From positions 576,001-640,000 of the forward strand of contig OZ219753.1 of NCBI GenBank assembly GCA_964291315.2: a stretch of 64,000 nt of DNA, given 5' to 3'. The position numbers were made by a program, and so were the translations under genes. The notes beneath the pieces were generated by a model, which was not told where the DNA came from, did no database searches, and was given only the letters and a program-made list of their open reading frames with translations. Numbering within the stretch: the stretch's first letter is position 1; each line of letters opens with the position of its first letter. The stretch is from Candidatus Poribacteria bacterium (lineage in GTDB: Bacteria > Poribacteria > WGA-4E > WGA-3G). Shown one piece after another: positions 7,865 through 56,680 of this stretch.

Positions 7865-7979
7865 TTCGTGCTGTATTGCTGCCAAACTAACAGTTTATGC
7901 TACATGCCCAGCACTGTGTTATCCTTCCACTAACCACCAAAGTGACTTTAGTTCACATCATGAAAGGATTCTGTAGTTT

Positions 7980-8927
7980 ATGAAAATTTTACTTCAAGGA
8001 AGTATTGAAGGCGCACTTCTCGAAAGATTGGAAAACATCATTGGCGATAAACATACCTATGTTGTTCCGAGCTCACGGGCGGAACTCATTGAAGAAGGGA
8101 AAGACGCGGACATCTTCTTCGGCTACTGCAGCGAAGATATTTTCCCGCATCTGCCCAATATTAAGTGGGTTCAGGCCTCCAGCGCCGGTATGGACCGACA
8201 CATGTATCCTGCGATGCGTGAGAGCGATGTGATTCTGACGAATGCTGCAGGACTCTACGCAAAGCATGTTGCTGATCAAGCCTTCGCGCTTTTGCTGGGT
8301 TTGGCGCGCGGTATCCACGACTCTGTGCGTAACCAAGACAAACATCAGTGGGGGCGCGGCAAGTCTCCGATGATTGAGATCGATGGGTTCAAGATTGGGA
8401 TCGTCGGCATGGGCGGTATCGGGATGGAAATGGCAAAACGTGCAAAAGGGTTTGACATGCAGGTGATGGCTGTGGATGCCTACCGCACGGATAGACCTGC
8501 AAACGTGGATGAACTGATGCCGATGAATCACCTCTCAAATATGATGAGTCAGGTGGATGTTGTCATGGTTGCGTGTCCGTTGACAGAAGAAACACGCGGC
8601 TTGATTAATAAGGTTAATCTCTCGGTGATGCAGCCGACAGCGTTTTTTATTAATGTTGCGCGCGGCCCGATCGTCAATGAGCCTGATCTTATTGAGATTC
8701 TGCAAGCCGGTAAAATTGCGGCTGCGGGTTTGGACGTTACTGAAGTAGAACCGCTCCCCACAGACAGTCCGTTGTGGGACTTTGATAACGTTATCATTTC
8801 GCCGCACTCCGCAGGCGGATCTCAACACAGGATGCGCCGCGTGACGGAGTTCTTCTTGGACAACTTGGAACGGTATCTGAAGGGCGGAGAACTGAAAAAC
8901 GTTGTGAACAAGCAACTCGGTTTTTAA
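7980..8927 (+). CDS. D-2-hydroxyacid dehydrogenase family
   Basis: GIVGMGGIG, FINVARG, AGLDVTEVEP, SPHSAG. Confidence 0.92.
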   Translation: MKILLQGSIEGALLERLENIIGDKHTYVVPSSRAELIEEGKDADIFFGYCSEDIFPHLPNIKWVQASSAGMDRHMYPAMRESDVILTNAAGLYAKHVADQAFALLLGLARGIHDSVRNQDKHQWGRGKSPMIEIDGFKIGIVGMGGIGMEMAKRAKGFDMQVMAVDAYRTDRPANVDELMPMNHLSNMMSQVDVVMVACPLTEETRGLINKVNLSVMQPTAFFINVARGPIVNEPDLIEILQAGKIAAAGLDVTEVEPLPTDSPLWDFDNVIISPHSAGGSQHRMRRVTEFFLDNLERYLKGGELKNVVNKQLGF

Positions 8928-9061
8928 CAAAAATATTCGATCTACACATATGTAAATCTAATGTGGGGTATCGCGCCTAGCGGAAAGGGAAATACTGCTG
9001 GAAAAATGGAACGGGTATAAGGTTTTTGGGAAAAGGAAATTTAGAATTACAGAGATTTTAC

Positions 9062-9090
9062 TTGACTTTTGCCTTAAAATATGCTATAAT
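9062..9090 (+). promoter_or_regulatory. Sigma70-type promoter with extended -10
   Basis: TTGACT(9062)-17 nt-TATAAT(9085), preceded by TGn. Confidence 0.65.
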
Positions 9091-9170
9091 GCAGAGAAAC
9101 TTAACAGGGTTTTATAGGTTTCTGTTGACTTTTCATAAATCTACAATTTTTCTATAAAAAGGAGACAATA

Positions 9171-11234
9171 ATGTTAACAATAGTTTCTCTTCAACACGCA
9201 GAACGGCGCTTGACCCCGTTAGAAATTAAACGCCAGCACATCAAGATTGATGTTAAAAACCAACTCGCTACAACACAAGTAGACCAGATTTTCGTTAATC
9301 CAAACCCTTTTGAAGTTAAGGGGATGTATCTCTTCCCGGTACCAGATAATGCGGTAGTTTCAAATCTCGCGCTGTCTGTTGATGGAAAGTCGATGAGTGG
9401 AGAGCTTCTCTCCGCAGCAGAATCGCGCAGAATGTATCAGAACAGTGCACATTACGGGGATAACCGGGCGATTTTGGAGCATATAGGCACGCGGGCATTT
9501 GCAGCACGCGTGTCGGAAATTCCAGCAAACGCGGTCCGGAACATCCGTTTTGAGTACTCTCAGGTTGTCCCTGTAGATAGCGATCTGGCCAAGTATACCT
9601 ATCCATTGGCGCTTGCAAAATCTGCATCTGGGCTGATCGCAGAGCTCCGTATCGAAATGGAGATTGAAAGCAGCGATGCACTTAAAACAGTTTTTTCACC
9701 GTCACACGACATCGTTTCTACACGCAAGGGAGATCGCCAGGTTCACGTCAGTTATGTAGATAAAAATGTAGACCCGGACGACAATTTTCACTGTTACATT
9801 TCTACTTCAAACAAGGATTTTGGAATCACTTTACTCACGCACCGCGCCGAGGAGAACGAAGATGGATATTTTATGCTCGTCATCTCCCCCAAGTATGAGG
9901 TGAAGAAAACGGATATTGTCGAGAAGGATTTCATCTTCGTTCTGGATCGTTCCGGCAGCATGGCAGATCGGAAAGTTGAACAAGCAAAGGAAGCCCTCCG
10001 CTATTGTGTACGGAATTTGAACGACGGTGATCGTTTCAACTTAATCCTATTTAACGAGGGCATTACAACGTTAGCTGATAGGTTGAGCAGAGGCGAGGAG
10101 TGGTTCGATGGCGAGCGCTGGCCAGATTCTACCGCTCTATCTCACAAGCTGCTTGATGTGAAGGATGGTCGTGACAAAGCCCTTGCGTTCATTGAGGATA
10201 TTTACGGTCGGGGAGGGACAAATATCAATGACGCGTTACTCACAGCGTTACGGGAGAGCCCGGATCCGAATCGTCCTCGGACGGTTGTTTTTCTTACAGA
10301 TGGCCAACAGACAGTCGGTACAAGGAATCCCGCGCGGATCCTTGAAAATGTAGCGAAAGCGAACGAAAGGCAATCTCGTATTTTCGTTTTCGGCGTGGGG
10401 TACGATGTCAACGATCATTTGCTTGATAAATTAGCAGCGGATAATCGGGGTTCACGTAACTATGTAACGCCGGATGAAGACATTGAGGTCGCTGTGTCGA
10501 CGCTCTTCAGAAAAATGAATGAGCCGGTGTTGGTGGATGTAAGTCTCGATTTCGGACACGTTCTGACGAAGGATATGTCGCCCCGTAAACTTCCAGACTT
10601 GTTTCGTGAGGAGCAGCTCACTCTTCTTGGTCGCTATGAAGGGCATGGTGACACCCGACTGACAGTTGCTGGAATAGTTGGTAAAGAGCGGCAGGAGTTC
10701 TCTGAAAGTGTTCATTTCTCGAAGCTTGAGTCGGACAACGATTTCTTACCGCATCTCTGGGCGCAGCGTAGAATTGCGGAATTGGTGGATGAAGCTGCGC
10801 TGAGCGGTGGGAGTGAAGAACTGGAGAAAGAGATTGAGCGTATCAGCACAGAGTACGGTGTACTAACGCCTCATACATCATTCGTTACGGGGGACGACGG
10901 TTCACGCCGGTATATGTCGCGTATACGAGATGCCTACTATGAGGCACCTATCAATAGGCGGATTGAGCATACGAGGGAAATAGAATCAAGAAAATCTGCT
11001 TTGCATATGCAGCAGTATGATGATACGAAATATATCGCGGGCAAGGCTTTTCACTATTGGAACGGTATATGGGTAGATAACCAGTACGACGGGAAATCGA
11101 AACGACAGAAAGTTGTGCTTGGCAGCGATGCGTATGATCACTTGATAGAAGGTTTTCCAGAATTGAGAAAATACGTAAGGCTGGGTTCGGTGATAATCTG
11201 CTACAAAGGTGTGAACTATGAAATTACGGGGTAG
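9171..11234 (+). CDS. VIT + von Willebrand A domain protein (inter-alpha-trypsin inhibitor-like)
   Basis: VIT 'QIFVNP..GMYLFPVP', MIDAS 'FVLDRSGSM', 'GGTNI', 'FLTDG', C-terminal 'YGVLTPHTSF'. Confidence 0.88.
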   Translation: MLTIVSLQHAERRLTPLEIKRQHIKIDVKNQLATTQVDQIFVNPNPFEVKGMYLFPVPDNAVVSNLALSVDGKSMSGELLSAAESRRMYQNSAHYGDNRAILEHIGTRAFAARVSEIPANAVRNIRFEYSQVVPVDSDLAKYTYPLALAKSASGLIAELRIEMEIESSDALKTVFSPSHDIVSTRKGDRQVHVSYVDKNVDPDDNFHCYISTSNKDFGITLLTHRAEENEDGYFMLVISPKYEVKKTDIVEKDFIFVLDRSGSMADRKVEQAKEALRYCVRNLNDGDRFNLILFNEGITTLADRLSRGEEWFDGERWPDSTALSHKLLDVKDGRDKALAFIEDIYGRGGTNINDALLTALRESPDPNRPRTVVFLTDGQQTVGTRNPARILENVAKANERQSRIFVFGVGYDVNDHLLDKLAADNRGSRNYVTPDEDIEVAVSTLFRKMNEPVLVDVSLDFGHVLTKDMSPRKLPDLFREEQLTLLGRYEGHGDTRLTVAGIVGKERQEFSESVHFSKLESDNDFLPHLWAQRRIAELVDEAALSGGSEELEKEIERISTEYGVLTPHTSFVTGDDGSRRYMSRIRDAYYEAPINRRIEHTREIESRKSALHMQQYDDTKYIAGKAFHYWNGIWVDNQYDGKSKRQKVVLGSDAYDHLIEGFPELRKYVRLGSVIICYKGVNYEITG

Positions 11235-45199: not shown

Positions 45200-46936
45200 T
45201 CAGTTGTAGCGGCGATAAATCCGGATTTCGGGATGTGAGAGGGCACGCATCGGAAATGGGGCTCCACTATCAGATATCTGAATGCCCCAAAATTGCGGTT
45301 TACATTGGAATGTCTTGTGCAATACATACGGACTTCCCTCCGCCAAAATCCGCTCATAAAACGCCGACGTTTCTTCTACTTCCACTTCATTGAGAGGGTA
45401 CCAGTCTTGTTTTTGATAATGCTCCGGATATGTCTGATATTTTTGGAATACCTCCAGGTCCGGCACGAGAACAAGTACCCATTCTGCTTCTTCTTCTGCC
45501 ACCTCTAAAGCTATTTCGGGAAGGAGCCAGTCAAATAAAACTTCTGGTGCTCTGGAGATAATTTCTTCTTCTGGAATGTGTTCTGCTATCCACTCAGATG
45601 CAGCAATTACGGTGGGTTGTTTCGTTAAGACAAGCGCGAAAGCGACCGTATAGATCGATGTCCAAAGTACTACAACACTCCCAATAACTCCGCCGATCCA
45701 TTTTCCAAATAGGCAGGCCAGGGCTTTCGATGTTTTGCTGAGGCACTTCTCGACAAAGAAGAAGCGTTTTTGCAAAATGCCAGTCACTAAAGGTTGACCA
45801 CTGAAGGATTTTCCAAATAGATACGTGAAAAGTGCCCCTATGGCGTAAGGGAAACGAGCAAGGGCCGCCGCGGCAAGCACCATGAGCGCTGGATAGAGTA
45901 TGAGTAGATGGCGTGCGAACTTAACCTTATGTGCCCCGATAAATAGTAGATAAAAGATAACAAAGGCAAGTAAAGTGACTTCGAGTGTTAGAAACTTGCC
46001 AGTTCTCGGTGTCAGCGAAAGGACACTTCGTAAAATACCGAAACCGGCAAGAAGTGCAAGAGGCATCCCCATACCCCACTTCAGGAGGGGCCATAAGTAG
46101 ATAAACCGATCCAACCAACCCGCCTCCGCAGTTGTAATGAGACCGAAGTGCCCCCGGTGATAGTGAGTAGCTTCATACCAGAAATCGTCAAAGAAAAGAT
46201 TCCATTCGGGTGAAATCAGATCGATGAGCCAATACGGACAAAGAACTGTGAAGGTTAGGACAGAAACACAAATGACAGTCGAGATCCCCCTATAAAATTT
46301 GTTGCTATCGATGAAACATAATAAGGAAAATCCGACGAAAACAGTTGTAAATTTGACAGCAAGGCCCAACCCCATAATTCCTCCAAGCCAGACTGCAGTT
46401 TGAAACGTAAGCGTATCTGAAGAAGAACGTGAACGGACTACAACCAAAAGAAAAAGCACCACGGAGAAGGTCGCTGGGATGTCAACAAGCGCGAAGCGCG
46501 ATTCGTTGGTAGCGTGTAACATTGCGATGGCGAGGAGTCCTGCTGCTATTTGTCCAACACGTCTGTTGTAACACCGCAGCCCAATGCAATAGGTAAACCA
46601 AAGGGTTGCTGTAGAGAGTAGAGTATTGATGCATCGCGCCAATAAAATTACATGTGTTTCCGTTAGATATAAGCCTCCAAGTGACAGCAATTTACCTATC
46701 GCAGCAATTAAGTAAAACCATGCTGTTCCGGGCCAGTTATATGTATCAGGGACTGCGGTAAGGTGAATGAGGTTCAGGACATCGTGGGCAATGATTATTT
46801 CACGTGGGTCTGGGGAATCAGGCAAACCGACGTTTATACCGATAAGACGGATAACGAGACCAATAATAAGGATGGCGAAAATAATATAGTTACCGGGGAA
46901 ATTGAAACTAGTTTTGAGTGCTCGAAGTAATCTCAT
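45200..46936 (-). CDS. GT-C fold glycosyltransferase (GT39/ArnT-like)
   Basis: Polytopic membrane protein; N-terminal 'PDPRE' acidic loop; 'GLAVKFT'; 'KFARHLL..YP'. Confidence 0.8.
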   Translation of the reverse strand: MRLLRALKTSFNFPGNYIIFAILIIGLVIRLIGINVGLPDSPDPREIIIAHDVLNLIHLTAVPDTYNWPGTAWFYLIAAIGKLLSLGGLYLTETHVILLARCINTLLSTATLWFTYCIGLRCYNRRVGQIAAGLLAIAMLHATNESRFALVDIPATFSVVLFLLVVVRSRSSSDTLTFQTAVWLGGIMGLGLAVKFTTVFVGFSLLCFIDSNKFYRGISTVICVSVLTFTVLCPYWLIDLISPEWNLFFDDFWYEATHYHRGHFGLITTAEAGWLDRFIYLWPLLKWGMGMPLALLAGFGILRSVLSLTPRTGKFLTLEVTLLAFVIFYLLFIGAHKVKFARHLLILYPALMVLAAAALARFPYAIGALFTYLFGKSFSGQPLVTGILQKRFFFVEKCLSKTSKALACLFGKWIGGVIGSVVVLWTSIYTVAFALVLTKQPTVIAASEWIAEHIPEEEIISRAPEVLFDWLLPEIALEVAEEEAEWVLVLVPDLEVFQKYQTYPEHYQKQDWYPLNEVEVEETSAFYERILAEGSPYVLHKTFQCKPQFWGIQISDSGAPFPMRALSHPEIRIYRRYN

Positions 46937-47087
46937 TTTTTGAGATGCCTTGTCAAAAACACGTCGCCAACGCTGTTTATGGCATTCATACCTGATAAGC
47001 TCGGATACGATAGCTGTCAGGAAATCAGAGCGTCAGTAAATTTTCCAAATCGCGCTGAATCGTTATGAGCTGATCTTCCATTTACCT

Positions 47088-47807: not shown

Positions 47808-48074
47808 AATAAAAATTTTTTATATAAAGCAATATCTCTGTCAACCATTTGAGGGGCGTTGGATAAATATGGATCCAATCTGGATTGGAGCTCTACTATA
47901 GCGTGTTGCTTAGCCTAGAGAGTAAGAAGCTACTATCCGTAATCGTTCAATCCACAGATGGGAATACCGTATCAGTTAGCGGAGGCTGCGAATGTCCACA
48001 TTTCTAACTACAGCAGTGAATGGTCCATTAGTATTGACAAAGAAACATTCACTCACAGTAAAGGCGGGAAACAG

Positions 48075-48620
48075 GTGAAACGATCGTTCGTAAGAAAGCC
48101 TAACATTGTGCTTGTCGGTTTTATGGGAACCGGGAAGACCACTGTTGGCAGACAGCTTGCCTCACAGTTATGGATGTGCTACATAGATACAGACGACATC
48201 ATTGAGCGGGATAGCGGATGTTGCATCAGCAACATCTTTGAGGAAAATGGTGAACCAGCTTTCCGAGATATTGAAAGTGAAGCGGTTCGCAAAACGTCAA
48301 GGCTGTATAATCATGTTATCTCTACAGGTGGCGGTGTCGTCTTGAGAGAAAACAACATAGCAACGCTAAAACACAATGGAATTGTTTTCTGTCTAACGGC
48401 AACACCAGAAGAGATATATCGGCGGGTTCGACATCAGATGCATCGTCCGCTGCTCCAAACGCCCGATGCACTCGCCAAAATTCGGATGATGTTGGCAGAA
48501 CGACAGCGATACTATGCAGAAGCTGATTATAGGGTAGAGACGACGGGGCGTTCGTTTGGAGAAATCACCGGATACATAAGACAAGTCTATGCGAAAAAGA
48601 GTAGGTGGGGAAAACGGTGA
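48075..48620 (+). CDS. aroK: Shikimate kinase
   Basis: 'GFMGTGKT', 'GEPAFRDIE', 'STGGG', 'RPLL'; start GTG 48075. Confidence 0.95.
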   Translation: MKRSFVRKPNIVLVGFMGTGKTTVGRQLASQLWMCYIDTDDIIERDSGCCISNIFEENGEPAFRDIESEAVRKTSRLYNHVISTGGGVVLRENNIATLKHNGIVFCLTATPEEIYRRVRHQMHRPLLQTPDALAKIRMMLAERQRYYAEADYRVETTGRSFGEITGYIRQVYAKKSRWGKR

Positions 48621-49702
48621 AAACTTTACGTGTGGAACTCGAGGATAATAGTTATCCGATCATTGTCGGAGCAGATTTCCTCGAACGAGTCGGCGAGCTG
48701 CTGTTGCCCTATATCAAGTCGCATAAGGTGTTTATTGCTTCGGACACCTACGTTCAAAGGCATTATGCACCTATCGTTCAGCGGAGCCTTGAAGCTACTG
48801 GACTTGATGTTTGCACGATTGAAGTGCCCGCTGGAGAAGAGAGCAAATCGTTGGAGCAGTTTTCGCATATATTGGACAGTTTGGTAGATCATCAATTCGA
48901 CCGAGCTTCAACTCTAATTGCCCTCGGGGGCGGTGTCATCGGGGATTTAGCGGGGTTTGCAGCGGCGGTGTACATGCGCGGTATACCTTATATTCAGATT
49001 CCGACCACACTACAAGCACAGGTTGATGCCAGCGTCGGTGGCAAGACAGCAATTAATCATTCAAAAGGCAAAAATCTTATTGGGGCATTCCACCAACCGA
49101 AGTTGGTGCTTATTGATGTGCGGACGCTCGAAAGTCTACCGCAGCGGGACATCCGAGCGGGGCTTATTGAAGTTATTAAAATGGGCGTTATCCGAGACGA
49201 ACCCTTATTTGAGAAGATCGAGGAAAATCTTGATGCCATCTTGAATCTGGAGAGTGCTATACTCAGTGAGATGATTGCCTGCGCGTGCATTAACAAGGCG
49301 GAGATCGTCGCGAAAGATGAGAAAGAGAGTGGGGTGCGGATGGTGCTCAACTATGGTCATACCTTTGGCCACGCGCTTGAAGCACTGACACATTACAACA
49401 GATATCGGCACGGTGAAGCGATCTCTATCGGTATGAACTGCGCGGCACAATTAGCTGTTCATTTGGGGATGTTCTCTGATACCGATTTTCAGCGGCAACA
49501 AGCCCTTCTGAAACGGGCGAACTTGCCAATTGCTTTCCCGCTGGATATCGCTTCTGAGGTACTGTGTAAGGCTCTGTATTTGGACAAGAAAACATTAGGC
49601 GGCAAACTCCGTCTCGTTTTACCAACCCGTATTGGAGAAGTTGTTATACGAAATGATGTTGATGATCAGGACATTATGGAAGCGGTTTCACAATGTTTCT
49701 GA
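48617..49702 (+). CDS. aroB: 3-dehydroquinate synthase
   Basis: 'GEESKS', 'LGGGVIGD', 'VDASVGGKT', 'LNYGHTFGHALE', 'HGEA'. Confidence 0.96.
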   Translation: MKTLRVELEDNSYPIIVGADFLERVGELLLPYIKSHKVFIASDTYVQRHYAPIVQRSLEATGLDVCTIEVPAGEESKSLEQFSHILDSLVDHQFDRASTLIALGGGVIGDLAGFAAAVYMRGIPYIQIPTTLQAQVDASVGGKTAINHSKGKNLIGAFHQPKLVLIDVRTLESLPQRDIRAGLIEVIKMGVIRDEPLFEKIEENLDAILNLESAILSEMIACACINKAEIVAKDEKESGVRMVLNYGHTFGHALEALTHYNRYRHGEAISIGMNCAAQLAVHLGMFSDTDFQRQQALLKRANLPIAFPLDIASEVLCKALYLDKKTLGGKLRLVLPTRIGEVVIRNDVDDQDIMEAVSQCF

Positions 49703-49758: not shown

Positions 49759-50904
49759 ATGAAAAAAAAGATTCAGTCCTTAGTTTTCTGCTGGGTTTTG
49801 TGTCTAAGCGTTAGCATAGGGTTTAGCCAGGTGCTTACGTCTCCTTCAAACGTGACAGCAGTGGATACTCCGAACGATGATGGAAGCAGTATCACTATTA
49901 AGTGGGATGCAGCCCCGGAGGATAGCAGTATCAGCGAATACCAAATTCTGCGCCGGGTTGCGGGAGGCGGTCTCGAAGAGGTTGGGGAGCTGTTGCCTTT
50001 TGAGACAACAACTTATGTTGATTCCACGATCGAGAAAGGAAGGGCGTATGCCTATATTGTGCGAGCAATTAGCGAAACAGAAGCAACAGTAGAATCCGAA
50101 GAGACTGCACCTGTGAAAGGGTCAGGTGAGTGGTTTCACACGGGTAAAATTCCGCTGTTCATTGCGATGTTGGCCTTTTCGGTTGCGATTGTTGTGAGTA
50201 TTTATCAGGCGCGCAGTGGCGCAGATGTTTTCATTCGACGAATTCCAGGGCTGGAAGCCGTAAATGAAGCCATTGGCCGCGCTACGGAAATGGGACGCTC
50301 AATTCTCTATATCCTTGGGCTCGGTGGCGTGAGTGAGGCGGCTACGATCGCGAGTATGAACATTTTAGGACAGGTCGCTCGTCGAACTGCAGATTATGAA
50401 ACTCCTTTGCATGTGCCCTGCCGGGATCCGATTGTGATGAATGTTGTGCGCGAGATGGTAAAAACGGCATATCTCAACGAAGGGCGTCCGGATTCTTATA
50501 ACGAAGACAATATTTTCTTCCTCACTGATAGCCAGTTTGCTTATGCCGCGGGTGTGGACGGCATAATGTTACGCGAGAAACCAGCAGCGATATTTCTACA
50601 AGGGACTTTTTATGCCGAATCACTTATCCTCGCGGAAACTGGGAATTCTATTGGTGCAATCCAGATTGCGGGGACAGATTCCGAGCATCAACTCCCGTTC
50701 TTGATCACAGCGTGTGATTATACTCTGATTGGGGAAGAACTCTATACTGCAAGCGCTTATCTTTCTAGAGAACCCATGCTTCTCGGCAGTATAAGAGGGC
50801 AAGATTGGGGGAAAGCGATTATTTTCGCTGTCATTGTTTCAGGTGTGTTTCTTGAATTAGCGGGTTTTAACTGGATCACAACACTTCTACAGCGGGTAAG
50901 TTAG
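49759..50904 (+). CDS. Fibronectin type III + DUF6754-like membrane protein
   Basis: Signal peptide; FN3 'PSNVTAVDTPND..W..Y..YIVRA'; TM; 'IRRIPGLEAVNEAIGRATEMGR', 'QFAYAAGV', 'FYAESLILAETG', 'LIGEELY'. Confidence 0.78.
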   Translation: MKKKIQSLVFCWVLCLSVSIGFSQVLTSPSNVTAVDTPNDDGSSITIKWDAAPEDSSISEYQILRRVAGGGLEEVGELLPFETTTYVDSTIEKGRAYAYIVRAISETEATVESEETAPVKGSGEWFHTGKIPLFIAMLAFSVAIVVSIYQARSGADVFIRRIPGLEAVNEAIGRATEMGRSILYILGLGGVSEAATIASMNILGQVARRTADYETPLHVPCRDPIVMNVVREMVKTAYLNEGRPDSYNEDNIFFLTDSQFAYAAGVDGIMLREKPAAIFLQGTFYAESLILAETGNSIGAIQIAGTDSEHQLPFLITACDYTLIGEELYTASAYLSREPMLLGSIRGQDWGKAIIFAVIVSGVFLELAGFNWITTLLQRVS

Positions 50905-50912
50905 GAGGTCTT

Positions 50913-51563
50913 ATGCGCCGACAAGTTCCTTTAATTTTTTGTTTCGTTTTTGGGATTACGATGATCTTCACACACTTCATACCACATTCGGCCGCTCAAA
51001 ACCTTTACCGAGAAGTCACTGAGTGGGCATTGATTATCACTTCTTTCGCACTTATCTTAAGTTCACTCACACTCATCCGAACACACCTCACGCGGATTCA
51101 CCGTCGCGTAGAACATTGGCAATATAGTATTTTTATATTTGTCGGGATTCTGGCGATGGTGGTGATAGGTATCCCCTTTGGACCGCAAAATCCTATCTTT
51201 GAGTGGTTATTCAACAACATTCAAGTTCCTATGGAAGCGACGATGTTCTCACTCCTCGCTTTCTTCGTTGCCTCAGCGGCATACCGTGCTTTTCGAGCGA
51301 GAACGATTGAGGCGAGTTTGCTGTTGATCACGGCTCTCATTGTAATGCTGGGTAACGTTCCAGTAGGGGACCTAATTTGGAACTCACTGTTCTCTTGGTT
51401 GCCCTGGGATAATGGTGCCTCAATCATGCAACAGTGGATTTTGGATAACCCGAATCTATCCGCAAGACGTGGAATTATCCTTGGTATCAGCTTAGGGGTT
51501 ATCTCACAATCCATCCGGATCATCTTGGGAATTGAACGCTCGTATCTTGGTGGAGGAGACTAG
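50913..51563 (+). CDS. Conserved hypothetical polytopic membrane protein
   Basis: ~6 TM; 'ATMFSLLAFFVASAAYRAFR', 'RGIILG..LG..IRIILGIER'. Confidence 0.75.
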   Translation: MRRQVPLIFCFVFGITMIFTHFIPHSAAQNLYREVTEWALIITSFALILSSLTLIRTHLTRIHRRVEHWQYSIFIFVGILAMVVIGIPFGPQNPIFEWLFNNIQVPMEATMFSLLAFFVASAAYRAFRARTIEASLLLITALIVMLGNVPVGDLIWNSLFSWLPWDNGASIMQQWILDNPNLSARRGIILGISLGVISQSIRIILGIERSYLGGGD

Positions 51564-51566
51564 CGA

Positions 51567-52382
51567 ATGTTTGAAAGATTGACGAATATAGACCGTCGGA
51601 TCATCTTCATTCTCGTGACTCTGTCGGTTATCGTACCGACACTGGTTCCAGTGAGCATGCCGATCCCGGTATCAGAACCTACACAACAACTCTACGATTA
51701 TATTGAAGCTATACCGGCCGGCGGAACGATCATGCTCGCCTTTGACTATGGCCCCTCTTCCTTAGCAGAGCTGAATCCGATGGCAAGGTCGATCATGAAG
51801 CAGTGTTTTGCTAAAGATATAAGGGTGATTGCTCTCACACTTTATCCGGAGGGCACGACTATGGGTAGCGCATTGATTCAAGAAGTTGTATCGGAAACAG
51901 GTGCGGTTGATGGTGAGGACTATGTTTTCTTGGGTTATCGTTCTGGAAATCAATTAGTTATTCTCGGCATGGGAACGGAAATTGCTAGTATTTTTGACAC
52001 AGATTACAACGGAAAACCGATCTCGGAAATCCCGTTGATGCAAAATGTTATCAACTATGATCAAATTGATCTCCTTGTCGATTTGTCTTCTGGGCAGCTC
52101 ACGGAAACTTGGATTACCTATGCAAACGGACAATTCAATCTACAGATCGCAGCAGGTGTCACCGGCGTTATTATCTCACAGATGTATCCGTATTTGCAAA
52201 CTGGACAATTAATTGGTCTGATTCGAGGGATTGCTGGGGCTGCGGAGTATGAATGCTTAATAGATGCACCGGCAAAAGGGACATTATGGATCAACATTGA
52301 ATCGTTTGTTCACTTACTCATTATAGGTTTAGTCGCTATTGGAAATATTGCGTTCTTCATTCAGCGAGGGCGAGAGGAGTAA
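51567..52382 (+). CDS. Conserved hypothetical membrane-anchored alpha/beta protein
   Basis: N- and C-terminal TMs; 'FDYGP..AEL.P', 'GEDYVFLGY', 'YPYLQTGQ..G..GAAEYE'. Confidence 0.75.
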   Translation: MFERLTNIDRRIIFILVTLSVIVPTLVPVSMPIPVSEPTQQLYDYIEAIPAGGTIMLAFDYGPSSLAELNPMARSIMKQCFAKDIRVIALTLYPEGTTMGSALIQEVVSETGAVDGEDYVFLGYRSGNQLVILGMGTEIASIFDTDYNGKPISEIPLMQNVINYDQIDLLVDLSSGQLTETWITYANGQFNLQIAAGVTGVIISQMYPYLQTGQLIGLIRGIAGAAEYECLIDAPAKGTLWINIESFVHLLIIGLVAIGNIAFFIQRGREE

Positions 52383-52386
52383 ATTG

Positions 52387-53037
52387 ATGGAACTTTTTGG
52401 CATCTGGATTGCCGCATTTTTGACCTTCTGCATTTACAGTTTTCTGTACCGAGAGAATCCATTTTACCGGTTTGCGGAACATCTCTTGGTAGGTATATCC
52501 CTCGGATACAGTATTGTGATCTCGATTCATCAAGCATTTATTCCGTTCGCGTGGCAGCCTTTTTATGAAGCGGTAAGAGGCGATTCTCTAGCTGGTCTCA
52601 TAAAATTGATTCCTATATGGATCGGTTTGCTGTATTTTTCAGGGTTGTCGCCGCGGCATACCTGGTTAATTCGGTGGCCTAGTGCGATCCTTATAGGTAT
52701 TGGGTCGGGGCTGGCCATTCCGAATGTGCTGCGTGCTAACATTTTTGAGCAGACCCGGGGAACAGTTGAGCCTTTCGGTGCTATTCATGCTGGAACCCTC
52801 TCTGGCTGGGATATTTTCGACGCTGTTCTGATGGTGATCGGGGTGATTTGTACACTCACTTATTTCTTTTTCTCTGTAGAACACCGGGGTCCTATTAAAT
52901 GGCTTTCAAAGGTAGGTATCGCCTTTCTTATGATAGGGTTCGGTTCAGCATTCGGTAACACGGTCATGGGACGTGTTGCACTTCTCATTCAACGCATCGA
53001 TTTTCTGCTAAACGATTGGCTCGCTACAATTTTTTGA
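52387..53037 (+). CDS. Conserved hypothetical polytopic membrane protein
   Basis: 'YSFLYRENPFYRFAEHLLVG', 'YFFFS', 'FGSAFGNTVMGR'; SD GAGGAG. Confidence 0.75.
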   Translation: MELFGIWIAAFLTFCIYSFLYRENPFYRFAEHLLVGISLGYSIVISIHQAFIPFAWQPFYEAVRGDSLAGLIKLIPIWIGLLYFSGLSPRHTWLIRWPSAILIGIGSGLAIPNVLRANIFEQTRGTVEPFGAIHAGTLSGWDIFDAVLMVIGVICTLTYFFFSVEHRGPIKWLSKVGIAFLMIGFGSAFGNTVMGRVALLIQRIDFLLNDWLATIF

Positions 53038-53101
53038 TACTGTTATAGGGCAGTCAGGTAGTTCGGGCCCTTTTCCTCATTAGACCTTGGGAGAAAACTG
53101 T

Positions 53102-53944
53102 ATGAAACTTGGATATAGCACTTGGGGTATGCCTACTGTGCCTATAGATACTGCTGTTTCTCATATAGCGGGGCTCGGATACGATGGACTTGAACTCACT
53201 ATTATCCCTCGCTTTACGACCGAACTCAGCACACTTGACGCTGCGCAGAGGAAACGGATCGCGTCTCTTCTGAAAGAGCATGATTTGGCGTTACCCGCAA
53301 TCGCTGCACACTCAAGTCTGTTGGAAACTGATCCAGACAGGCATGCCCAAAATATGTGGAGGCTGAAAGGTGGCGTTGATTTAGCAATAGAACTCGCTCA
53401 AGGTGATGAACCTCCCGCGGTAAATACAACGCCAGGTGGCAAGCCAGAGGAGTGGAACACCCGAAAAGAGCTCCTCGTCGAACGGGTCGGAAAACTCATA
53501 GATTATAGTGCCTCGCGCGGTATCATCATTGCTATGGAACCACACGTCGGCGCAATCATCGATACGCCTACGAAGATACTAGAACTTCTGGCAATCATCA
53601 ATTCTCCATACCTTAAAGTTAACTTCGATATTAGCCATTTTGATATTGTTGGTATGTCCACGGAGGAGACGGTAGCAGCGTTAGCTGCGGTATCGATACA
53701 TACACATGTCAAGGACCAACACGGCACTGCACCTAACTACGAGTTTCTCATACCTGGTGAAGGCCAGTTCGACTATGTAGAATATCTCAAACAGATGCAG
53801 GCACACGGATATGATGGGTTCATCACTGCCGAAATAAGTTTTATGGTGCAAGCGCGTGAAGATTACGATCCGCTCGCTGCTGCGTCTCTTTCTTACGAAA
53901 CATTATCGCGTGCCTTTACGGTGGCTGGAATTGAAAGGGGATAA
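53102..53944 (+). CDS. Sugar phosphate isomerase/epimerase (AP endonuclease 2 TIM barrel)
   Basis: 'GYDGLEL', 'MEPH', 'FDISH', 'HVKD', 'GEG', 'YDGFITAE'. Confidence 0.88.
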   Translation: MKLGYSTWGMPTVPIDTAVSHIAGLGYDGLELTIIPRFTTELSTLDAAQRKRIASLLKEHDLALPAIAAHSSLLETDPDRHAQNMWRLKGGVDLAIELAQGDEPPAVNTTPGGKPEEWNTRKELLVERVGKLIDYSASRGIIIAMEPHVGAIIDTPTKILELLAIINSPYLKVNFDISHFDIVGMSTEETVAALAAVSIHTHVKDQHGTAPNYEFLIPGEGQFDYVEYLKQMQAHGYDGFITAEISFMVQAREDYDPLAAASLSYETLSRAFTVAGIERG

Positions 53945-53946
53945 CT

Positions 53947-55329
53947 ATGCAAACCCCGAATATTCTTCTTCTGATGACCGATCAGCAGCGATGGGACGCG
54001 ATGGGCTGCAGCGGTGACTGGGTGCGAACCCCGAATTTGGATCGTATCGCGAGTGAAGGAATTAGGTTCACCAACTGTGTCACGACATCCCCGGTCTGTA
54101 TTCCGACGCGTCTTAGCTTGGCAACAGGTTTATATCCACATAATACCGGTGTTTGGGATAATATGAATCATCAGATGCCTGCTACAACACCGACCTGGAT
54201 GCAAGCAGTGCGGGCCGCGGGTTACCGGACGAGCCTATTCGGCAAAACGCATCTTCACCCACACAACGGCGATCTGCGAGAACGTGAAGGGTTAATGAAC
54301 GCTTATGGATTGGACGACGTGAACGAGATCGGTGGCCCCCGGGCAAGTGCTACTGTTCTGTCACACATGACATCGGAGTGGGAAGCAAAAGGGGTATGGA
54401 ATGCCTATCGTACCGATTATCGCGAACGGTTCAGAACGAAACCGCACCTTGTGCGTCCGTCTGTCCTCGGACTTGAGGACTATGCTGATGTCTATGTAGG
54501 ACAACAAGCGAAACAATATCTACAGAACTACGGCCGATCAGAACCTTGGTTCTGCTGGGTGAGTTTTGGAGGACCACACGAACCATGGGATACCCCGGAA
54601 CCCTATGCTAATATGTACGATCCGGAAGAGATGCCATCTGCTATTCTACGCCCACCTACAGAAGAACGTCCACATGGACACTTAGATAGACTGATGGATC
54701 GGGTGAAACCGACGTTTGAACCCGGCGAGGTTGGGAAACTGCGTGCCAATTATGCGGGGAATGTGACGCTCATTGATGCACAGGTTGGCGACATTCTCGA
54801 TGCAATTGAGGCTCGCGGTGAACTTGAGAACACAATCATCGTTCATACCTCCGACCACGGTGAAATGAACGGAGATTATGGACTTATCTACAAAAGTAAC
54901 TTCCTCAACGGCGCAGTCAGGATACCGTTACTTGTTCGAACACCGGATAAATCGAATGCTGGAGCGGTCTGTGAGAATCTAGTCGAATGGATAGACATTG
55001 GTCCAACACTCGTTGAAATGGCAGATGGTGAATTGCAACACCCTCAGTTTGGCAAGTCGTTGTGCCCGGTGTTAGCAGAACCGCAATCTGTGCACCGAGA
55101 TTTCGCAATATCTGAAATACATGGAGAGATTATGTTGTTAAATCGAGAATGGAAGGCTGCTATCAACTCGGATGGCACGGTTTACCTTCTCTTTAATGTA
55201 CAAAACGACTCGAACGAAACAGATAACCTCGCCGGTAGACAGGAAGTTGCAGATGTAGAAACAGCCTTGCGCCTGCAGATTTTAGAGAGAATCGTGCAGA
55301 CGCAACTGCAAAAGCCGTTTCGCGAATGA
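53947..55329 (+). CDS. Cys-type sulfatase
   Basis: 'PNILLLMTDQQR', CxPxR 'CIPTR', 'GKTH', 'SDHG'. Confidence 0.92.
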   Translation: MQTPNILLLMTDQQRWDAMGCSGDWVRTPNLDRIASEGIRFTNCVTTSPVCIPTRLSLATGLYPHNTGVWDNMNHQMPATTPTWMQAVRAAGYRTSLFGKTHLHPHNGDLREREGLMNAYGLDDVNEIGGPRASATVLSHMTSEWEAKGVWNAYRTDYRERFRTKPHLVRPSVLGLEDYADVYVGQQAKQYLQNYGRSEPWFCWVSFGGPHEPWDTPEPYANMYDPEEMPSAILRPPTEERPHGHLDRLMDRVKPTFEPGEVGKLRANYAGNVTLIDAQVGDILDAIEARGELENTIIVHTSDHGEMNGDYGLIYKSNFLNGAVRIPLLVRTPDKSNAGAVCENLVEWIDIGPTLVEMADGELQHPQFGKSLCPVLAEPQSVHRDFAISEIHGEIMLLNREWKAAINSDGTVYLLFNVQNDSNETDNLAGRQEVADVETALRLQILERIVQTQLQKPFRE

Positions 55330-55479: not shown

Positions 55480-56680
55480 CTATAGATCGATGAAAGCGGA
55501 TATTTTCGTCCATAATGGTGTTGATAACAGCACCTTTGATTGCATGCCGGTTTTCATCAAAATATAACAGTGTTGTTGCCCTCTGTAGTTTTGTGTCACC
55601 TGAATTTGGTCGCAAATTGACACGGGGGTCAGTTGAGATGTGCGTTTCATCGCTGCAATGAGAATGTTAACGGCATCATATCCTAGTGCTGCTGGGCCAT
55701 CCGGGGGCATACCAAACCGATCAGTATAGGCATTGATAAATAGCCGTGCTCTTTCATCTAACTGTTCCGCTGTTCCATCTGGTGAGAAATGATTCACAAA
55801 TAAGCTCCCGTTAACCGCCTCTCCAGCGATGTCAGCAAGATCGGGTCTGTCCCATCCATCACCCCGAGGAATGTTGCGGTGATGCCGATATGAGTGTCTT
55901 TCGCTTGCTTGACAGTAAGTGGAAATTCAGGACCCAAGCCGGGTAAAAATATAACATCCACAGGCGGATCCACGGCAGCAATCCCGGTGAGTTGCTCGGT
56001 ATAGTCTGTCGTTCCTGCTTCGTAAAGTTGGCGAATTGCAACTGTACCGCTGCAGTAAAGGCTTCCACAAAAACCTCTGTCAATCCTTGGGAATAGCTAC
56101 TATTTATTTCTGTTAGCGTAGCGGCAGTTGCTGCGTTCAACTCCTGAATAGCGAAATTTGCCATTATGTTTGCCTGATAAGGGTCAGTATATGCCGTCAT
56201 GAACACGAAATCGCTGTTTTCTGGGACCCGCGGATTTGTCGGGTAGGTCGTTAGCAGGGGTATTTCATGCTCGCGGATGACTTTACTAACTTCCATTGCG
56301 ATTGTAGAATAGTCTGGACCAACAATTGCTGATACCCCAAGATCGATTAATTCTTCTGCATGTTGAACGCTGTAGGCGGATATTTTTTGTCGTCTCGGAC
56401 GAGAAGGTATATTGGTGCCCTTTTAATTCCTCCACCCTCATTTGCGAGAGCAACTGCTAATTCCGCACCATTCCGGGTCGTGCCAGGGTCAGGCGGGCTA
56501 TAAATGAACCCGATTCTGATACATGGCATACTGGCAGGTTTTTCTAAATCGGTGGAGGTAACACCTGGTTGAAGGCGATCACGTCCGACTAAACAAAAAA
56601 GGGCTATGGTGAAAAACAGGGTAAGCTTCTGCCAATAAAGATAGGTTTGAGAGTCGTTCCATTCTGTTTAAACACAAAAA
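55480..56680 (-). pseudogene. Branched-chain amino-acid ABC substrate-binding protein (LivJ-like), multiply frameshifted
   Basis: Fragments 56347-56529 ('GAELAVALANEGGG'), 55859-56296 ('TNP..F..D..Q', 'YSQGL') and 55480-55797 ('ALGYDAV'); lipobox reads LVGR instead of LVGC. Confidence 0.8.

Follow-up and report, generated by a model that had tools for sequence, protein, structure and literature searches.

A 64,000-nucleotide stretch of a sponge-associated Candidatus Poribacteria bacterium genome (assembly GCA_964291315.2, contig OZ219753.1, positions 576,001 to 640,000 of the forward strand; hereafter the window, with positions counted from its first letter) contains four consecutive forward-strand genes without any assigned function, which we call A, B, C and D; the letters E, F and G denote the further genes of a putative seven-gene system described below. 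Gene A (49759-50904), as given in our list of open reading frames (ORFs), encodes a protein of 381 amino acids (aa) with a signal-like start, an FN3 domain, a transmembrane (TM) helix, a DUF6754 domain and a second TM helix. Gene B (50913-51563) encodes 216 aa with six hydrophobic segments, gene C (51567-52382) encodes 271 aa with a Rossmann-like alpha/beta domain (residues 37-231) between two TM segments (10-26 and 237-270), and gene D (52387-53037) encodes 216 aa from its ATG, with five to six hydrophobic segments. The ORF list started D at an alternative TTG (52339); the ATG at 52387 is preceded by GAGGAG and agrees with the starts of the homologues. Because D is taken from this ATG, the intergenic gaps are 8 bp (A/B), 3 bp (B/C) and 4 bp (C/D), the spacing that the initial annotation, made from the letters of the window, had reported for four co-oriented genes.

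Protein A matches the Pfam family DUF6754 (PF20539) with 398.1 bits against a cut-off of 27 (E-value 1.7e-119), covering the whole model (positions 3-256 of 257). Its N-terminus is a signal-like hydrophobic segment after KKK (residues 1-24, 49759-49830; hydropathy peak at 5-26), and hydropathy gives two TM segments behind it. The FN3 domain (residues 28-115, 49840-50103), predicted to lie outside the cell membrane, is followed by TM helix 1 (128-152, 50140-50214) and then by a conserved ARxGxxLFIRRI motif; the DUF6754 region as matched by Pfam (123-376, 50125-50886) comprises an alpha/beta domain (165-336) and the last TM helix (339-367). The AlphaFold2 (AF2) model of A, with a predicted local distance difference test (pLDDT) score of 81.1, begins with a helix (2-20) and an FN3 sandwich (30-112) and continues through the TM helix (128-152) into six strands in alternation with helices (165-336), followed by a long last helix (339-367). 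As a single sequence, the FN3 domain scored 20.8 bits against PF00041 (E-value 0.00047), below the gathering score of 25 bits; the profile of the A family matched a titin FN3 domain among the PDB sequences with an E-value of 1.4e-28, and the model has the FN3 beta-sandwich fold: VIA aligns it to 2ibg_A at Z 13.6 with a root-mean-square deviation (rmsd) of 2.2 across 100 residues, and to many further FN3 chains at Z 12-13. The signal peptide and the FN3 domain proposed by the initial annotation are thus borne out.

The Pfam entry describes only the TM-domain-TM part of A and is silent on function. The profile of the A family returned FN3 matches only when searched against all PDB sequences, and the Foldseek and VIA lists of A were likewise filled by FN3 matches, which say nothing about the fold of DUF6754; the ESM Atlas gave no usable match for the domain. 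About 60 columns of A are invariant (62 in 26 sequences), nearly all of them within the DUF6754 part, including R160, R174, T176, E177, D267, R272, E287, E293, Q302, T306, Q311, C319-D320-Y321-T322 and E326-E327. The lowest AF2 confidence falls at residues 265-272 and 287-296; both regions rank with the most conserved of the protein and may be interfaces or mobile loops.

No curated family exists for B, C or D: Pfam gave nothing at E-values up to 0.1, and none of the four proteins receives a name from NCBIfam. By hydropathy, B has six segments, C has two and D has five to six, in agreement with the earlier view of B and D as polytopic proteins of about six TM helices. In B the conserved motifs are ATMFSLLAFFIASAAYRAFRAR and LGIERSYLGG. 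PDB profile searches found no match for B or D and only chance-level matches for C (E-values 0.26 and 1), and the ESM Atlas gave no usable match for B. In one Poribacteria locus (L048, 7213-7863), an in-frame stop codon shortens B by three residues (…YLG*GD*), a harmless natural variant that does not mean a broken gene.

The AF2 model of C (pLDDT 92.4, predicted template modelling score 0.87) shows a TM helix (residues 10-26), then six strands in alternation with helices (37-231) and finally one long helix (237-270). The domain (51675-52259) resembles generic Rossmann-like domains (MTH777/1kjn, RCK/KTN, SDR, GT-B halves), with which it aligns at Z 8-10; the best match was 1kjn_B (Z 10.3, rmsd 3.4, 140 residues), 3l4b_A had Z 9.4 (rmsd 3.4, 127 residues), and the RCK/KTN, SDR and GT-B matches ranged over Z 8-9.7. 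However, the identity to these domains is 4-14%, no match stands out, the Foldseek TM-scores are about 0.3, and the predicted location of the C domain is outside the cell, where one would not expect nucleotide cofactors. The family is large, although it has no curated entry: a profile of the C domain matched 4552 cluster representatives (50% identity) at E-values up to 0.001, 3399 at up to 1e-10 and 844 at up to 1e-30. A word-based search, which is weak evidence, returned no longer forms of C. A Pfam scan of 20 longer members of the C family gave one CARDB match and two sub-threshold matches only.

Across genomes, A-D behave as a single conserved unit. When species genomes were scanned with protein A, 205 stretches proved to encode a relative, of which the best 80 were kept; these make up 78 loci (35 from Poribacteria and 43 from other phyla), on which we ran tblastn with A-D. 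In line with the proposal of the initial annotation, the four genes co-occur in other genomes. The order A-B-C-D was found in 33 of the 35 Poribacteria loci, the remaining two (L052 and L064) being cut by a contig end; in L053 and L058, C overlaps B by a few bases, and both C and D are present. The 43 loci of other phyla come from WOR-3, Zixibacteria, Coatesbacteria, Stahlbacteria, Nitrospirales, Binatia, Edwardsbacteria, Eiseniibacteriota, Armatimonadetes, Zipacnadia and others (labelled "bacterium"). They hold 53 A genes, since several loci carry tandem modules in two or three copies: B, C and D follow 42 of these genes, five are cut by an end, and six stand alone. In L075, three unrelated ORFs lie between B and C. 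Of the 176 genomes of the phylum, 172 carry PF20539, as do 132 of the 133 that are of high quality. We collected 85 ORFs for A, 76 for B, 75 for C and 77 for D, which greedy clustering at 72% identity reduced to 29, 24, 28 and 25 representatives, respectively, for alignment with the window proteins. Compared with homologues from other phyla, A of the window shows 44-53% identity, B 42-52%, C 31-43% and D 36-47%, and the unit is strongly constrained.

The shared build of A and C had led the initial annotation to propose distant paralogy of the two within a pseudo-symmetric complex, possibly a new class of secondary transporter that works without an ATPase. The underlying observations hold: the motifs that it quoted are present in the translations of A and C, both proteins are membrane-anchored with a strand/helix domain clamped between two TM helices in the AF2 models, and both domains show the same order of elements, with six strands alternating with helices and a last TM helix. 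The window operon also lacks an ATPase gene. Paralogy itself is not detectable: hhalign gave A against C a probability of 0.9% over their full lengths and no more than 0.5% when the domains were compared by themselves (in local, global and low-mact modes), and B against D one of 0.6%. With the two domains predicted on opposite faces of the membrane (see below), and with the strict co-occurrence and adjacency of F and G elsewhere, we regard the proposal as very improbable, the least probable of the explanations considered here. A model of the complex based on the alignments of A (residues 118-381), B, C and D, in which C was scored, gave 0.80, 0.81 and 0.80; the score was 0.00 and 0.00 when C was replaced, and 0.78 when A was replaced by an unrelated protein, so that we take these scores neither for nor against a complex.

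We read the sidedness of the proteins from the charges in the alignments, using the well-established positive-inside rule, and from the placement of the domains. In A, the KKK start, the FN3 domain and the TM helix are followed by the positively charged ARxGxxLFIRRI motif, a pattern that would place FN3 outside and the DUF6754 domain in the cytoplasm. In C, a nearly invariant D-R-R precedes TM1, an acidic stretch follows it, and an R/K-rich tail (RRR-type in the window protein) lies behind TM2, so that the C domain, flanked by the two TM helices, is predicted to face outwards. Protein B probably has its N-terminus inside and six TM helices, with the positive loops 2 and 4 inside and the TM3-TM4 loop outside. 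These assignments argue against the pseudo-symmetry.

The outward parts of the proteins are exchangeable on a constant cytoplasmic domain. Residues 150-381 of A have counterparts in 802 longer proteins (668-2000 aa) at E-values up to 1e-10. Among the 120 longer forms listed, we counted by hand 24 with PF00041, 38 with PQQ-like beta-propeller families and 58 with PF20539 only. The FN3 domains and the propellers stand ahead of DUF6754, which is always C-terminal, with a median of five residues behind the match. In three of the 120, the outer N-terminal region is matched by the profile of the C domain (P0010, E-value 1.6e-72; P0019, 1.3e-29; P0002, 7.2e-19). A metagenome scan with P0019 found nothing, and two further metagenome loci were informative. 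In the first (L117), all seven genes are contiguous on one strand: E-F-G precede a 1428-aa A that contains C-type segments, and B, a separate C and D come after it. In the second (L118), a single 455-aa B ORF (7902-9269) carries a C-type domain between TM3 and TM4 (independent E-value 4.4e-38), and a separate C and D follow. The C-type domain is therefore a recurring module, found at the place of FN3 in A and in the outward loop of B, a distribution that is new here and that agrees with the outside location predicted for C itself. Within the outer region of the long A of L117 (5995-10281), one pair of C-type segments is swapped (profile positions 120-203 before 4-122), which may reflect a circular permutation or two partial copies.

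To look for further components, we compared 149 ORFs that flank the module in the 43 non-Poribacteria loci with Pfam. A sole set of neighbours recurred: F, of about 605 aa, which matches PF13941 ("MutL"); G, of about 377 aa, without a family; and E, of about 116 aa. In tblastn searches within 6 kb of A, F was found in 19, G in 22 and E in 16 of these 43 loci. Beyond the seven genes the neighbours vary (peptidases, Tll0287-like proteins, TonB_C proteins, Memo, acyl-CoA dehydrogenase). In the window genome all three genes are present on the same contig as A-D, at three other places: F (C4:1934263-1935693) matches PF13941 end to end (428 bits, E-value 2.1e-128), G (C4:340527-341654) is 53% identical to the query (E-value 1.9e-114), and E is an intact 98-aa ORF (E-value 2.4e-16). 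In a deep Poribacteria lineage, another family of the same class (genome G017), E-F-G-A-B-C-D are contiguous on one strand (L114, 2636-9265). The linked seven-gene operon was thus probably ancestral in the phylum and split in the lineage of the window genome; this split of a contiguous ancestral operon within Poribacteria is new here. Of the earlier statement that no ATPase is present, the part concerning the window operon stands; in the wider sense it does not, as F adjoins the module in other phyla and in G017, and is present, unlinked, in the window genome.

Since PF20539 and PF13941 are both near-universal in Poribacteria (PF13941 in 170 of 176 genomes), we examined their co-occurrence where the families vary, in a sample of 71 genomes from the class around a Nitrospirales carrier. 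Eighteen of these Nitrospiria-class genomes have both families, none has DUF6754 alone, one (G198) has PF13941 alone and 52 have neither, counts that include non-independent kin and are to be read as a pattern, not as a statistic. In 15 of the 18 carriers, the two are on the same contig and no more than about 3.6 kb apart. This co-occurrence table is likewise new here. The case for a secondary transporter had been built on the want of an ATPase, and it loses its ground, since F and G adjoin the module elsewhere, unlinked as they are here, and accompany DUF6754 in 18 of 18 Nitrospiria-class carriers.

F is a relative of GlmL, although not an equivalog. It falls below the cut-offs of all three NCBIfam models (GlmL NF040745, 238.2 against 475; Or-4 NF040744, 224.5 against 600; the subfamily TIGR01319, 177.7 against 204.05). 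GlmL/MutL is the accessory protein of glutamate/methylaspartate mutase, and F of the window genome resembles it and Or-4 in matching the whole of PF13941. In contrast to these models, which span about 450-460 positions, F is about 150 residues longer, and in other phyla it lies beside the genes of the membrane module, not beside a mutase. F also weakly matches the Hydantoinase_A families. For G we found only sub-threshold barrel-sandwich signals (Biotin_lipoyl, E-value 0.013; RnfC_N, E-value 0.014). We considered an Rnf/Nqr-like system on account of the weak RnfC_N/NqrA_N-type signal in G (E-value about 0.01); neither B nor D matches an Rnf-Nqr family or has an invariant cysteine, and we rejected the idea on these grounds.

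These features of F and G could suit another arrangement, in which A-D merely admit a compound and F and G, an ATP-dependent ASKHA (actin/Hsp70-fold) enzyme of the hydantoinase/oxoprolinase branch seated on A, convert it at once, much as in group translocation. The matches of F to PF13941 and, weakly, to the Hydantoinase_A families would fit, as would the lipoyl-like (barrel-sandwich hybrid) segment of G and the location of gene E in the window genome, 136 bp ahead of the gene for a lipoyl-bearing E2 acyltransferase; the scores of F, below all three NCBIfam cut-offs, leave its own activity open. On the other hand, no genes for substrate-related enzymes recur beside the system, the barrel-sandwich matches are sub-threshold at E-values of about 0.01, and the link between E and E2 is a single observation. 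We consider such trapping of a substrate improbable.

Another alternative dispenses with transport. Type VII ABC systems (MacB, LolCDE, FtsEX) and the auxiliary proteins of the ABC-2/GldG type combine TM-held periplasmic domains with a cytoplasmic energy source, and the module resembles them in its way of working only. As in MacB, LolCDE and FtsEX, ATP turnover by F and G could move the outward domains (C and FN3) against a component of the envelope or the surface, for its extraction, assembly or remodelling. This would account for periplasmic domains clamped between TM helices together with a cytoplasmic domain on which an ATPase may dock, and the outer region of A consists of protein- or glycan-binding scaffolds (FN3, beta-propellers), with CARDB in one member of the C family. 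Unlike those ABC systems, the module has no ABC ATPase and no match to the ABC, FtsX or MacB families, and its candidate energiser has an actin fold. Similarity of the MacB/FtsX type was not found with Pfam, NCBIfam or PDB profiles, nor does a conserved envelope gene stand beside the module in the 43 non-Poribacteria loci. We judge mechanotransmission of this kind rather unlikely, while giving it more weight than the trapping scheme.

A transmembrane sensor could also combine outer domains that vary with a cytoplasmic domain that stays constant: the former would bind a signal, and the DUF6754 domain would control the action of F and G on a cytoplasmic target. A response-regulator gene does lie downstream of the module in one locus (L109), which is one of 43, and no kinase, cyclase or other output domain recurs. 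Moreover, 15-16 TM helices and two polytopic subunits exceed what a sensor needs. A role in sensing appears highly unlikely to us, though a shade less so than the paralog-based secondary transporter.

The reading that we favour, tentatively, is that A-D form one inner-membrane module, the membrane half of a seven-gene system (E-F-G-A-B-C-D) that may work as an ATP-coupled machine for transport or transduction. In this proposal F would be a GlmL-like ASKHA ATPase, G (377 aa) its obligate soluble partner and E a protein of about 100 aa. F and G would dock on the cytoplasmic DUF6754 domain of A, and ATP turnover would be passed through a membrane core of B and D to the outward parts, namely the Rossmann-like domain of C and the exchangeable outer domain of A (FN3 in the window). 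The outward parts would capture something outside, which would then be moved across the membrane or acted on there; the likeliest job would be the ATP-coupled uptake or translocation of some substrate. What the data establish is which genes are present and in what order, how conserved they are, their association with F and their domain build; the topology, the assembly into a complex, the coupling to ATP and the transport are inferred. With somewhat less assurance, we suggest that the system could be the first membrane machine for transport or force transmission to be built on an actin/Hsp70-fold ATPase rather than on a P-loop ATPase, with exchangeable outward capture domains (FN3, beta-propeller, C-type).

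The seven-gene system corresponds to no characterised one, although A belongs to a catalogued Pfam DUF. At E-values up to 1, none of A-D matched an ABC family in Pfam or NCBIfam, so that neither the ATPase nor a recognised permease family of an ABC transporter was seen in the unit. At the level of sequence, B and D had no match in Pfam, NCBIfam or the PDB profile search to characterised secondary transporters such as MFS. Profile searches of the three databases place none of A-D in a characterised transporter family, as the initial annotation had expected. A full-text literature search returned no paper using the terms DUF6754, PF20539 or PF13941.

Several points weigh against the proposed machine. 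No experiment, solved structure or annotated relative (Pfam, NCBIfam and PDB searches) speaks for A-D, E or G, and transport itself is a guess. We know of no transporter driven by an ASKHA ATPase, and GlmL and Or-4 are thought to be accessory proteins of enzymes, so that F would fit the role of a soluble enzyme equally well. E, F and G are linked to A-D in none of the 35 Poribacteria loci, including the window operon; the joint function in the window genome is argued from co-occurrence, and the near-universality of both families makes that pattern weak, as kinship among the sampled genomes does for the Nitrospiria-class counts. Six A genes lack B-D (the third copy in L076, at 9715-10482, and those in L077, L079, L086, L090 and L091, from WOR-3 and other lineages). 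Finally, the varying neighbours beyond the seven genes give no hint of a substrate.

If the proposal is true, an entire class of membrane machines would have escaped study because it is nearly confined to uncultured lineages; it would be near-universal in Poribacteria and occur widely in phyla that are mostly uncultured. Its likely energiser, with an actin fold that no transporter is known to use, would bear on the number of ways in which ATP can be coupled to membrane work. For sponge symbionts, A-D are one of a small number of near-universal gene sets to which no function has been assigned. The contiguous seven-gene versions in L114 and L117 are a ready construct for expression and structural work.

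The surroundings of the operon in the window are as first described. Pfam identifies aroK (shikimate kinase, SKI; 47958-48620) and aroB (3-dehydroquinate synthase, DHQ_synthase; 48605-49702) upstream, and a xylose-isomerase-like TIM barrel protein (53087-53944) and a sulfatase (53947-55329) downstream, all on the forward strand. Of the 35 Poribacteria loci, 33 have aroB upstream, 30 have the isomerase downstream and 30 have the sulfatase there. Neither aroK nor aroB was found in any of the 43 loci of other phyla, which makes these neighbours lineage-specific and not parts of the module. We therefore rejected a functional link of A-D to aroKB or to the sulfatase pair, whose synteny is confined to Poribacteria. 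A scan for promoters and terminators at the locus gave 17 and 9 candidates, against 13.8 +/- 3.6 and 6.9 +/- 2.8 in shuffled sequences; these counts are not above those of the shuffles and do not delimit the operon. Rfam had no match between window positions 47000 and 56000.

Some minor observations concern the neighbours of the module genes and the rest of the window. Behind the lone copies of A we found a radical-SAM/HemN-like gene (L079 and L090) or, on the other strand, a gene for a TonB_C protein (L077, L086 and L091). In the window genome, the lipoyl-bearing protein behind gene E is the E2 acyltransferase of a 2-oxoacid dehydrogenase (L116, 4484-6266; G000:C4, about 2.24 Mb). Behind F (L111, 8202-12701; G000:C4, about 1.936-1.941 Mb) lie genes for two paralogous secreted proteins of about 280 aa without a family, a TPR protein and a BatD-domain protein and, further on, Cas6 and another CRISPR-associated gene. 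On the reverse strand of the window, a gene at 45200-46936 encodes a 578-aa polytopic protein with a sub-threshold match to PMT_2 (glycosyltransferase family 39-like; 24.1 against 26.1 bits). On the same strand, at 55480-56529, three successive ORFs (60, 145 and 105 aa) match separate parts of Peripla_BP_6 (profile positions 21-57, 85-162 and 252-311), and the gene for this periplasmic binding protein looks broken.

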